From Eilatimonas milleporae (lineage in GTDB: Bacteria; Pseudomonadota; Alphaproteobacteria; Sphingomonadales; Kordiimonadaceae), in contig NZ_REFR01000009.1 in NCBI RefSeq assembly GCF_003688555.1, positions 805,187 to 829,186 on the forward strand: DNA of 24,000 bases, in the 5' to 3' direction. The notes below the pieces were generated by a model, which had not been told where the DNA came from, searched no databases, and worked only from the letters and a program-made list of their open reading frames with translations. This document shows, one piece after another, positions 8,503 to 10,459 of this stretch (its first letter is position 1; each line of letters opens with the position of its first letter). A program made the position numbers and the translations under genes.

Positions 8503-8838
8503 TTAGAATGTGCCCGATATATGCGTCAGGCTCGCAGCCGTCAGTGTGCCGGTCCCGGTGTCGATCAGCATCCGTTCGGCGGCGCGGCCCCGATCCGTGA
8601 ACAGGCCGTCGCCGTGACGGGCGGTACCGCCATACAGGCACCAGACATCCGTGCCGTCCCCGCTGACGATTTCGGCCCGCATGCCACGGTAGCCGAGACC
8701 GGGCGGGCGCACGGCCGGATCGCCGCCGGGCGGCAATGCACGCAATGCACCGGCGACACGTTCAGCCGTGTCGCCGGTCACATCCCATGACGGGTTCGGC
8801 CGTCCGGAATACAGGTCTGCGGTCACGGTCACACACAC
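8503..8838 (-). CDS. hypothetical protein, stand-alone paralog of the N-terminal domain of the upstream 8855-9694 product
   Basis: 111 aa with a GTG start 16 bp after the upstream stop. Shares LYSGRPNPSW, GLGYRGM and later F-T/V...E..L..TG positions with MHVYSGRPDPVW, RMGYRGF and FVSGAPAIEEYLLWTG of the neighbour. Confidence 0.6.
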   Translation of the reverse strand: MCVTVTADLYSGRPNPSWDVTGDTAERVAGALRALPPGGDPAVRPPGLGYRGMRAEIVSGDGTDVWCLYGGTARHGDGLFTDRGRAAERMLIDTGTGTLTAASLTHISGTF

Positions 8839-8854
8839 GTTTCAGACTTCACCC

Positions 8855-9694
8855 TCAGGCAATGGTGACACCGGAATTGGTGACCATATAGGTGCAGAAT
8901 GTCGTGTACGGCCCCCGGTCCGCCGTCATGGGGTCGGTAATGCGGTTGCCGGCATGGTCGACATTGATGACATCGGTCATGCCCGGCTTGTGCGACCAGC
9001 ATCCGTTCGAATCCTGCCGGTACCAATGATAATCCTCATCGGGCCAGATCACCAGTGCCACATACCAGCCGGGCGTCATCTCGGAAAAATCGGGCACGTC
9101 GACCAGGCCGTCCCGGACAGACGCCGCCGTAACACCGTCATCGCCGAGACAGGTGAGCGACGTGAACATCTGCCCGCTGCCGCGCCCGGGCTGGGGAAAG
9201 GTGTTGGTGGCCTGGTTGTTGGCATAGGCATAGCAATTGTTCGTTGCTTTTCTGTCCGCATTGTCATTCCACCAGTCGGGCTCATAGGCCGGGGCGTCCT
9301 CGCCGCGGCAAGGCGGACAGGACAGGGCTTCCATGCCCTGTTCGGCCGGCGGCACGGCGGCTTCGATCGCCTGGCGGGCATGGGTGGACAAACGGTCGCT
9401 CAGGGCTTTTTTACCCGTCCACAGCAGATATTCCTCAATCGCCGGGGCGCCGGACACGAATGTCCCGGTAAAGGCATTGGAGCCCGGCGTGTCCACGATC
9501 ATGGGGCGGCCGGACTGCCCGGCATCCGTCCGCAGGACACTGAATCCCCTGTACCCCATGCGGTGCCCGGCGGGCTTGCCCGCGCCCTGCATGCCTTCGA
9601 GGTTGGGCAGGATTTTTTTCGTATGTTGTTCGGGCACGATCCAGACGGGGTCGGGCCTGCCGGAATAGACGTGCATTCTTACAAGCAAAGTCAT
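8855..9694 (-). CDS. hypothetical two-domain protein: N-terminal YSGRP-motif domain plus C-terminal predicted papain-like/transglutaminase-like Cys-His hydrolase
   Basis: I chose the start MTLLVRMHVYSGRP (9694, AAGGA upstream) over the longer ORF to 9820. The C-terminal half has NNCYAYANN (candidate nucleophile Cys), then DEDYHWYRQD and CWSHKPG (candidate His). No signal peptide seen. Confidence 0.55.
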   Translation of the reverse strand: MTLLVRMHVYSGRPDPVWIVPEQHTKKILPNLEGMQGAGKPAGHRMGYRGFSVLRTDAGQSGRPMIVDTPGSNAFTGTFVSGAPAIEEYLLWTGKKALSDRLSTHARQAIEAAVPPAEQGMEALSCPPCRGEDAPAYEPDWWNDNADRKATNNCYAYANNQATNTFPQPGRGSGQMFTSLTCLGDDGVTAASVRDGLVDVPDFSEMTPGWYVALVIWPDEDYHWYRQDSNGCWSHKPGMTDVINVDHAGNRITDPMTADRGPYTTFCTYMVTNSGVTIA

Positions 9695-9790
9695 TGATCG
9701 GCATCCTTTTCTGTTGATGGCGGCGGCGGGCCGTCCTTGCGGCAGGCGGAACATCGCGCCGGCTGAAATGGTAATGGCGTCCGGGGGCAT

Positions 9791-9817
9791 CCGGGCCGCC
9801 CCTGACGGGCGGCCCGG
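9791..9817 (-). terminator. strong GC hairpin (11-bp perfect stem, 5-nt loop) 7 nt after the EndoU-like stop; no U-tract
   Basis: ccgggccgccc ctgac gggcggcccgg, read directly. The position fits a terminator or mRNA-stabilising element, but no T-run follows on the minus strand. Confidence 0.3.
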
Positions 9818-9823
9818 CAACGG

Positions 9824-10459
9824 TCAGGCGCCGGTCCGTGGGGCCTTGCGGGGTTTTTCCGGCTCGCCCTTGGAGGCGCCGACGACCACGCTTTCACCAA
9901 CCTCGGCGCCAAGCAGGATGTCGAACGGCCGCGCCCAGGCAATGCGTCCCAGTTCGTCCAGATAACCGATAATGGCGAGACCGTTGCCGGCGGCGGCAAA
10001 TCCGGACCAGGGTGTCGAGAAGGTCTGGATCGGACCCGTCGCCAACCAGCCCTGATAGGCCTGTTTGATGGCTGTCAGGACATCTTCGGCCCCCATCCAG
10101 TCAGGGAAGAAGATCGACTGTCTGATGGATGTTTCGAAACGGGTATTTTTGTTCTTGTCGGTTTTGTAGTGTTCATGGGCGCTGTAGTCGACAAAGTCAT
10201 AGGTCGCCCGGTAAACGCCGCTGATATAGTCGCGGTCATCCTCGTACGAGATCAGATTGCGGACGGTGGGCGGGTTCAGTCCGGCAGGCCGCGAAAAGGG
10301 ACCAAGGTCATTGTCATACCCCGCCTCGCCGTAAAAAATACGGCGGATGTTGATCGGCACGCTGTCCTTGCTCCAGATACCGACGGGCAAGCGTCCGGCA
10401 TTGTTATGCGGCAAACTGCTGAATGCCATTTTGGGTGATCTGAGACCGTATGCAGTCAT
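9824..10459 (-). CDS. hypothetical protein with bacterial EndoU-like (RNase toxin-type) C-terminal signature
   Basis: I chose the start MTAYGLRS (10459) with AGGAGG 6 nt upstream. SIRQSIFFPDWMGAEDVLTAIKQAYQGW followed by GLAIIGYLDELGRIAWARPF resembles the bacterial EndoU pattern as I recall it: (S/T)xFFPxxWsxxxvxxaIxeA, then a block like ..I.GY....G.I.TA.P. No signal peptide or known delivery domain. Confidence 0.45.
   Translation of the reverse strand: MTAYGLRSPKMAFSSLPHNNAGRLPVGIWSKDSVPINIRRIFYGEAGYDNDLGPFSRPAGLNPPTVRNLISYEDDRDYISGVYRATYDFVDYSAHEHYKTDKNKNTRFETSIRQSIFFPDWMGAEDVLTAIKQAYQGWLATGPIQTFSTPWSGFAAAGNGLAIIGYLDELGRIAWARPFDILLGAEVGESVVVGASKGEPEKPRKAPRTGA

Follow-up and report, generated by a model that had tools for sequence, protein, structure and literature searches.

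Genes for a protease and its inhibitor are juxtaposed and co-transcribed in the SpeB and staphopain systems, and the SpeB inhibitor Spi is a propeptide analogue whose gene lies next to speB and is co-transcribed with it (PMC2873492). EndoU nucleases carry two N-proximal catalytic histidines 12-18 residues apart (PMC7297114) and, in addition, a catalytic lysine. For the R-body (reb) loci, the described partner proteins, HP1.x and HP2.x, have been reported only in reb-bearing taxa (PMC3583457), and the identity of the toxin that accompanies R-bodies has been an open question for decades (PMC3583457, PMC13430693). The present analysis concerns three genes beside a reb cluster in a stretch of 24,000 nucleotides (nt) from Eilatimonas milleporae (contig NZ_REFR01000009.1, positions 805,187 to 829,186), called the window below. 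E. milleporae is a coral-associated alphaproteobacterium.

A preliminary description of this DNA had taken the three genes together as toxin-like candidates for an R-body-associated killing factor. In our best explanation, to which we give about an even chance, they would be two unrelated items located beyond the boundary of the reb locus, namely a cassette of a hydrolase with its inhibitor and a disarmed relative of the EndoU nucleases.

8503-8838, minus strand: small gene, 111 amino acids (aa), GTG start
8855-9694, minus strand: Cys/His protein gene, 279 aa; the longest open reading frame (ORF) spans 8855-9820, the true start is the ATG at 9694
9362-9694, minus strand: N-terminal domain (N-domain) of the 279-aa protein, residues 1-111, with the motifs SGRPxPxW and LGYRGF
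8855-9331, minus strand: Cys/His domain of the 279-aa protein, predicted to be catalytic, residues about 122-279, unannotated family
9824-10459, minus strand: EndoU-like gene, 211 aa, AGGAGGA before the ATG

All three were confirmed as co-directional ORFs on the minus strand. The start at 9694 is shared by all homologs of the 279-aa protein and gives an exact match to RMB12398.1, which is annotated as hypothetical. The gene order was the same in contigs of a closely related strain (L081-L083), where the 111-aa gene is also present. Neither a signal peptide nor a delivery domain was found in the three window proteins, in agreement with the preliminary description.

Conserved pairing of the Cys/His protein with a paralog of its N-domain

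The 279-aa and 111-aa genes form a conserved, autonomous and horizontally spread two-gene cassette. Homologs of the 279-aa protein numbered 476 at E <= 0.001, and the 120 matches listed were all of 269-307 aa. No Pfam domain was found in these listed homologs nor in 26 family members scanned, and NCBIfam and PADLOC gave no matches for the three window proteins. A scan of 185,579 species genomes, one per species, located the cassette at at least 199 places, in Alphaproteobacteria, Acidobacteriota, Planctomycetota, Verrucomicrobiota, Cyanobacteriota, Eremiobacterota, Actinomycetota, Thermotogota, Myxococcota, Omnitrophota, Clostridia and one metagenome-assembled genome (MAG) of Hodarchaeota (an Asgard archaeon). 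Neighbourhoods were counted at 80 of these genome loci. A homolog of the 111-aa protein was encoded at most 600 nt from the enzyme gene in about 61 of the 71 forms with both domains (N+C), and no other neighbour family was common to more than 12 of the 80 loci. Carriage on plasmids or phages was rare and the annotation was always hypothetical. A literature search with the cassette motif strings gave no matches, and the family of a putative hydrolase with its paralog is previously undescribed.

The relationship between the two genes was seen in BLASTP between the 111-aa protein and the N-domain of the 279-aa protein (1e-7) and, far more clearly, in hhalign of the N-domain with the 111-aa family (probability 99.9 %, E 6.8e-33), the 109 aligned columns covering the whole small protein. 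The N-domain itself is conserved in family alignments. On sequence evidence the 111-aa gene is thus a full-length paralog of the N-domain of the enzyme, as the preliminary description had proposed.

To our knowledge, the unusual arrangement of one domain present both in cis and in trans, presumably for self-control, is known chiefly from SpeB-Spi. The likeness to this pair of Streptococcus pyogenes lies in a cysteine enzyme with an additional N-terminal domain, followed on the same strand by a small homolog of that domain; the likeness to staphopain and staphostatin is looser. The cassette differs from SpeB-Spi, however, in having no sequence similarity and no significant fold similarity to C10 or C47 peptidases, in the lack of a signal peptide in the window proteins and in a far wider distribution of the family. 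Cleavage of the N-domain and inhibition are for the cassette proposals only.

Some genomes carry tandem copies of the enzyme gene (L011, 10001-11797; L067; L079), and an ORF scan found no small partner gene beside the tandem enzymes of L011. On the plasmid p1ST2 of a Vibrio sp. (L224, 2472-6552) a Cys/His homolog ends a co-directional set that consists of a C45 peptidase gene, a hypothetical gene and an asparaginase-domain gene.

Conserved residues and modelled fold of the Cys/His domain

The Cys/His signature noted in the preliminary description, NNCYxYA, DYHWYRQD and CWSHKPG, comprises the most conserved parts of the large family of the 279-aa protein. Over 113 distinct domains, 32 of them viral, conservation was 97 % for C154, 100 % for H223, 100 % for D221, 95 % for H235 and 99 % for K236; among the acidic residues Asp228 and Asp246 are conserved in addition to Asp221.

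The AlphaFold model of the 279-aa protein reached a mean predicted local distance difference test score (pLDDT) of 91.6 and a predicted template modelling score of 0.88, the weakest block being the inter-domain linker (residues 111-120, pLDDT 72). In this model Cys154 of NNCYxYA is located at the start of helix 154-158, and His223 (DYHWYRQD, strand 221-227) and His235 (WSHKPG, strand 233-235), 12 residues apart, lie on adjacent strands. A Cys at the start of a helix with a His on the following strands is the arrangement of papain-like and NlpC/P60 enzymes. We therefore propose, from the model, a papain-like (NlpC/P60-like) geometry with Cys154 as nucleophile, His223, and His235 or Asp221 as the third residue. 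Foldseek of the model against the PDB gave no significant match; many of the weak matches, the top ones included, are papain-like, namely PCAT1 C39, USP, Josephin, the NlpC/P60 proteins MepS, LytE and Spr, Cif and Tse1. Sequence and profile searches of the PDB with the 279-aa and the EndoU-like proteins found nothing.

The pro-protein-glutaminase of Chryseobacterium shares with the cassette enzyme a layout of about 110 N-terminal aa followed by a Cys/His domain of about 170 aa. It is, however, absent from the Foldseek fold matches of the 279-aa model. A homology between the two, suggested by a shared 'I-x-D-P' motif, was rejected at an hhalign probability of 0.5 %.

Domain architectures outside the window

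Besides the N+C form, the Cys/His domain was found in several other architectures. In one locus (L178) it directly follows an Rhs-associated core (TIGR03696, 68.9 bits at a cut-off of 32.5), and a second locus (L191) has the same layout with a score below the cut-off. In Clostridia, Omnitrophota, Myxococcota and others, the domain stands behind a signal peptide together with ChW repeats, a TIG domain or MopE-like motifs. Where exported enzymes had an adjacent partner, the partner was exported too (8 of 8), and the partner of signal-less two-domain enzymes was also signal-less in 50 of 59 cases, most of the exceptions being ORF-calling artefacts. Because the signal peptides of enzyme and partner covary, the partner is placed in the compartment of its enzyme, and it appears that the small partner can replace the fused N-domain in trans. 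By analogy with the Rhs tip and the exported forms, the Cys/His domain would be of toxin type. The earlier designation of the middle gene as toxin-like thus holds to the extent that its domain is used as an Rhs tip in L178, the toxicity being a prediction.

Papain-fold and NlpC/P60 polymorphic toxins (Tse1/Tae, Tox-PL) resemble the cassette in the modelled position of the Cys at a helix start and the His on a strand, in the location of the domain after an Rhs core in L178, in the small gene directly downstream of the enzyme gene and in a patchy distribution that suggests horizontal spread. They differ in that the cassette domain matches no Pfam or NCBIfam toxin family, that the window protein has no delivery module and starts directly with the N-domain, and that the putative immunity protein has its paralog within the toxin, as a fused domain. 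A further difference is found in L178, where the ORF downstream of the Rhs-linked copy begins with a signal peptide and is unrelated to the 111-aa protein.

The domain also occurs in viruses. A scan of IMG/VR yielded 57 loci with the Cys/His domain alone, chloroviruses included, and Foldseek of the 279-aa model against viral models (BFVD) gave significant matches to uncharacterised giant-virus proteins (E 8e-12, 6e-10 and 2e-4). In giant viruses the domain was observed as small proteins (L213, L222 and the GVMAG loci L168, L179, L181 and L186-L190), many copies of which have a Cys-rich CxC...C...H motif ahead of the Cys/His domain and neither the N-domain nor the partner gene. On viral contigs of 30-58 kb (L169-L177) the ORF at 4261-6501 encodes a protein of 747 aa in which the Cys/His domain is joined to a weak trypsin-like region.

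Proposed action of the cassette

The homology, conservation, gene pairing, architectures and distribution described above lead us to infer hydrolase activity of the 279-aa protein, its inhibition by the small protein, and toxicity. The 279-aa protein would be zymogen-like, with a prosegment-like N-domain packed against the C-terminal Cys/His hydrolase domain, and the 111-aa product, a free copy of the N-domain, would bind and block the catalytic domain in trans. Spi, a propeptide analogue encoded beside speB, inhibits streptopain in that way. A plausible antidote is encoded by the small gene, which is conserved beside the enzyme gene and whose product is a paralog of the enzyme's N-terminal domain. 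Indirect hints of a prosegment removal and inhibition of the SpeB-Spi type are the linker modelled with low confidence (residues 111-120), the enzymes that consist of the C-terminal domain only and keep a partner, and the matching export signals of enzyme and partner.

Several points weigh against a hydrolase and inhibitor cassette that is unrelated to the reb genes. A solid Rhs fusion was found once only, in L178, and it is unusual for a toxin to contain, in the same chain, a homolog of the protein that confers immunity to it. An export signal is lacking in most N+C forms, which nevertheless have extra conserved cysteines (C126/C129 and C182). The N-domain and the small protein could be chaperones, adaptors or substrate-binding modules. 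Between strains the 111-aa gene has a ratio of nonsynonymous to synonymous changes (dN/dS) of 0.77, a value from only six substitutions. The setting on the Vibrio plasmid looks metabolic rather than conflict-related. Finally, adjacency to reb genes recurs in the window and in a Blastocatellia clade (see below), and the position may not be accidental.

The end of the reb locus

The position of the three genes relative to the reb locus depends on the features that flank them.

7877-8356: Lrp gene, after the 111-aa gene
9791-9817, minus strand: hairpin of 11 base pairs (bp), GC-rich, without U tract, between the EndoU-like gene and the 279-aa gene
10514-10792, minus strand: IS3-OrfA-like helix-turn-helix (HTH) gene, 92 aa, HTH_Tnp_1 match at 9e-16
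10878-10932, minus strand: long terminator-like hairpin with a U7 tract, after the last gene of the reb operon, found by RNA folding
10974-15357, minus strand: reb (R-body) cluster with six RebB paralogs, a 171-aa RebB-like gene, and genes of 148 and 150 aa
15881-16588, plus strand: extracytoplasmic function (ECF) sigma factor gene, divergent from the reb cluster, Sigma70_r2 and r4_2 matches

The reb cluster was recognised by matches to PF11747, and the RebB family is named in the E. milleporae records. The HTH gene had been read in the preliminary description as a remnant of an IS3 insertion sequence (IS), and the three genes as separate transcription units that a mobile element might have brought to the reb operon. 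No OrfB follows the HTH gene, and only the 92-aa HTH protein is present. In seven related reb loci, homologs of 85-102 aa are located 4-89 nt after the last reb gene.

L085, 1511-1804: HTH homolog
L089, 11330-11596: HTH homolog
L091, 7870-8160: HTH homolog
L092, 9653-9919: HTH homolog
L094, 11361-11669: HTH homolog
L095, 11332-11589: HTH homolog
L096, 4808-5083: HTH homolog

Past the HTH gene, these related loci continue with recQ or a convergent gene and never with the three window genes. To judge from this recurrence, the HTH gene is conserved as the last (3') gene in reb loci of this subtype and is not an IS scar; its product, which has a leucine zipper, may derive from a transposase that was domesticated to regulate R-body genes. 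With the locus ending at this conserved gene, the three genes lie just outside the boundary. Since the supposed IS remnant is a conserved reb-locus gene, the mobile-element scenario was wrong as written. An IS-mediated junction was likewise rejected, as blastn of the HTH region against plasmids was empty and the gene is conserved in reb loci.

The other part of that proposal, separate transcription units, is in line with the hairpin at 10878-10932, which with its U7 tract stands between the reb operon and the three genes and is suggestive only. The region around the second hairpin (9770-9830) folded with -33.7 kcal/mol (z -2.2). A simple terminator scan detected none of these hairpins on the minus strand, and they were revealed by RNA folding. 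A motif shared between the region upstream of the reb genes and those upstream of the three genes was sought as a common promoter element, and none was found.

The hexamer CCTGAC is present in 31 copies in the window, where 11.5 would be expected. Copies at 11849-11854, 12253-12258 and 12656-12661 lie 3-11 nt past the stop codons of tandem reb paralogs and probably reflect duplicated 3' flanks. As a candidate for a shared promoter motif the hexamer was rejected, in view of these flanks and of its enrichment throughout the window. Between the reb cluster and the divergent sigma factor gene there is a strongly AT-rich gap of 520 bp (15358-15880), in which GC falls to 38 % over a 1-kb composition window at a genome GC of roughly 60 %; it is probably a regulatory or silenced region.

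Association of the cassette with reb genes

Two surveys were used to examine the link to R-bodies. Reb genes were sought within 10 kb of the 80 cassette loci by tblastn and with a Reb hidden Markov model (HMM); 77 of the loci had none, and the remaining three (L051, L054 and L068) were reb-linked. In the other direction, 80 metagenomic reb loci, the closest relatives of the window RebB, 38 of which are at least 8 kb long, contained none of the enzyme, the partner and the EndoU-like gene (tblastn; HMM at E <= 1). ECF sigma factor homologs, in contrast, were present in 36 of these 80 reb loci and in all three reb-linked cassette loci, which makes the sigma factor a consistent reb partner. The window genes thus resemble the reb loci of Raymann et al. 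(2013) in their place next to a reb cluster from which an ECF sigma factor gene diverges and differ from them in the distribution of the cassette and the EndoU-like gene. Nowhere in the 80 cassette loci or the 80 reb loci was the EndoU-like gene seen alongside the cassette, so that the three genes do not behave as one set. The empty HMM searches of the reb loci also led us to reject an identity with the partner proteins of Raymann et al., both for the cassette with HP1.1/HP1.2 (about 360 aa and 110-120 aa) and for the EndoU-like gene with HP2.1/HP2.2. Unlike the described reb partner proteins, the cassette is also found in taxa without nearby reb genes.

The three reb-linked loci belong to three species-level soil Acidobacteriota, two of them labelled Blastocatellia or Pyrinomonadaceae. 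They share a block of a sigma-TPR gene, the enzyme, the partner, four to five copies of rebB, further genes and an HExxH protein, with intergenic gaps of 43-126 nt and flanks that are not syntenic. In a neighbour-joining tree the enzymes of L051, L054 and L068 form one clade, and the window enzyme falls among alphaproteobacterial enzymes without a reb link. Because the tree separates the window enzyme from the acidobacterial clade, there would be at least two independent associations of the cassette with reb genes. Reb genes have been reported in 671 taxa. A rough estimate of chance adjacency, which assumes reb genes in at most about 1 % of taxa, a span of 20 kb and a genome of ~4 Mb, gives far below one event in 81 loci, so that two among ~80 are unlikely by chance; clustering of accessory genes in islands, however, inflates chance adjacency and weakens this argument. 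The adjacency in E. milleporae is lineage-specific and probably does not reflect co-transcription. For this genome the earlier link to the R-body is weak and no more than a lead, whereas the three acidobacterial clusters contain the cassette among their reb genes.

In the acidobacterial block the ECF sigma factor, which is of reb type, is fused to a long tetratricopeptide repeat (TPR) region to give proteins of 798-840 aa (L054, 7479-9875; L068, 7381-9903). The 272-aa HExxH protein stands at the far end of the block (L054, 14465-15283; L051, about 14150-15000; L068, about 14960-15720) and is a candidate for a further effector or processing enzyme.

The alternative that survives best is a role of the cassette, either alone or together with the EndoU-like gene, as the killing payload of the R-body. 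The signal-less zymogen and its inhibitor would accumulate in the cell that bears the R-body and pass into a predator once the unrolling R-body breaks membranes. Both the fused N-domain and the free paralog would keep the zymogen inactive, and the enzyme would be freed into the cytoplasm of the grazer when the R-body ruptures bacterium and phagosome. The gap in the identity of the R-body toxin (PMC3583457, PMC13430693) would be filled in this way, and the position of the cassette beside reb in the window and inside the conserved block of the acidobacterial loci, the two or more independent associations, the low estimate for chance, the toxin type of the Cys/His domain suggested by the L178 fusion, and the missing export signals of the window proteins are all consistent with it. 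Against it stand the 77 cassette loci without reb, the lack of the cassette in all 80 reb loci, including the seven that share the terminal HTH gene, the terminator-like hairpin and the conserved locus end between the reb genes and the cassette, the lack of a shared promoter motif, the loss of catalytic residues in the EndoU-like protein (see below) and the tendency of accessory genes to cluster in islands. Taken together, a payload role of the cassette is a minority possibility, and as an explanation of the window we regard it as rather unlikely. The more specific form, in which R-body loci acquired the cassette as a payload on at least two occasions, in Eilatimonas and in the Blastocatellia clade, appears a shade less probable still.

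The cassette might also be an ordinary cytoplasmic amidase of metabolism or regulation with its regulatory subunit, without a role in conflict and beside reb by accident. The two nearest cassette homologs (57-58 % identity) indeed sit among the housekeeping genes htpG, mdh and sucCD, most forms lack an export signal, PADLOC gave no match, and the homolog on the Vibrio plasmid is encoded beside a C45 peptidase and an asparaginase-domain gene. The distribution, however, is very patchy, with about 0.1 % of species and yet many phyla and giant viruses, no neighbour or pathway is conserved, and neither the Rhs fusion nor the secreted enzymes with their exported partners speak for such an amidase. 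We consider it improbable that this accounts for the cassette.

Much less probable is that the cassette, where it is reb-linked, provides a factor of R-body assembly or modification and not a toxin, in which case a papain-fold transglutaminase, deamidase or processing peptidase would act on the Gln/Asn-rich Reb proteins and the N-domain and its paralog would regulate the enzyme. Transglutaminases and protein deamidases share the same fold and a Cys-His-Asp triad. The richness of Reb proteins in Gln and Asn, the conserved Asp221, Asp228 and Asp246 and the location of the cassette upstream of the rebB genes within the acidobacterial cluster would agree with such a factor, whereas the large majority of reb loci lack the cassette, most cassettes have no reb genes nearby, the Rhs-tip and secreted architectures suggest other cells as the target, similarity to protein-glutaminase is not detectable and the window cassette lies outside the conserved reb-locus boundary.

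The EndoU-like protein

The EndoU-like protein matched PF14436 with 26.0 bits at a cut-off of 25.3, a marginal score above the curated threshold. A word-indexed search of 5.8 billion proteins returned a single match, a twin with 98 % identity, and phmmer (HMMER) against 1.84 billion representative proteins brought one further genuine relative (P0123, E 1.7e-6). A profile seeded with this relative recovered 441 EndoU proteins of the stand-alone kind, about 200 aa long, and PF14436 was present in all 120 matches listed from it, the twin excepted. In the alignment with these relatives the homology extends over about 150 residues, as also seen in comparison with the EndoU nucleases of PF14436 at large (CdiA-CT toxins and small exported forms). 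Since 31 columns are invariant, the homology is secure, and the window protein can be addressed as a true EndoU homolog, as proposed in the preliminary description. Foldseek of the EndoU-like model (pLDDT 75.5) against the PDB gave no significant match, as was also the case for the 279-aa model.

The residues that the alignment suggests to be catalytic are replaced in the window protein. Near-invariant family residues are substituted at H40 (R), H55 (F), K111 (S) and K113 (R), all of them between invariant flanking columns, and further near-invariant polar positions are changed at T167 (L), N174 (A) and T175 (W). The family residues H40 and H55 are N-proximal and spaced by 15-16 residues, which fits the spacing of the catalytic pair (PMC7297114). 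An N-terminal hydrophobic segment for export or anchoring, present in the relatives, is missing, and the window protein has a unique insert and a unique C-terminal tail. In addition, the two exported stand-alone EndoU genes inspected in their context directly precede a conserved gene of ~110 aa, unannotated and with 36 % identity between the two loci.

L225, 4627-4977: ~110-aa gene after the EndoU gene
L226, 4624-4956: ~110-aa gene after the EndoU gene

This ~110-aa family is likely the cognate partner or immunity family, and no homolog of it was found in the window. In comparison with the related strain (L081), the EndoU-like gene showed 8 synonymous and 3 nonsynonymous changes; as this corresponds to a dN/dS of 0.11, the gene is maintained under purifying selection.

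Because the catalytic residues, the hydrophobic segment and the partner gene are missing, we conclude that the EndoU-like protein is probably not a canonical nuclease toxin but a disarmed, near-orphan homolog of EndoU fold, which removes it from the toxin candidates of the preliminary description. The gene would encode a disarmed relative of the small exported EndoU RNases in which the residues that define the fold are retained and which probably does not cleave RNA in the canonical way. That it might be an active nuclease toxin with relocated catalytic residues, for example in the family-specific insert SAHEHYKTDKNK, is very unlikely: catalytic histidines have changed position within the related RNase A / EndoU superfamily (PMC7297114), His and Lys residues are present in the insert and selection is purifying, whereas seven near-invariant polar residues are replaced together, model confidence in the insert is low, no immunity-like partner stands beside the gene, an export or delivery signal is absent and the library searches found this variant in no other organism.

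Implications

In summary, the candidates for an R-body toxin in the window are narrowed from three genes to one two-gene cassette, which does not solve the question of the toxin. Two readings of this DNA are corrected: the EndoU homolog appears to be disarmed, and the supposed IS3 remnant is, by its conservation, a gene of the reb locus and possibly a regulator. The clusters of the Blastocatellia, with the cassette inside the reb operon, offer a cleaner test case than the window. Beyond the R-body, the cassette defines an unannotated Cys/His domain family that extends over many bacterial phyla, a MAG of an Asgard archaeon, Rhs toxins and giant viruses. If the payload role should prove true, the cassette would be the first sequence-defined candidate for an R-body-associated toxin, with self-protection built in.

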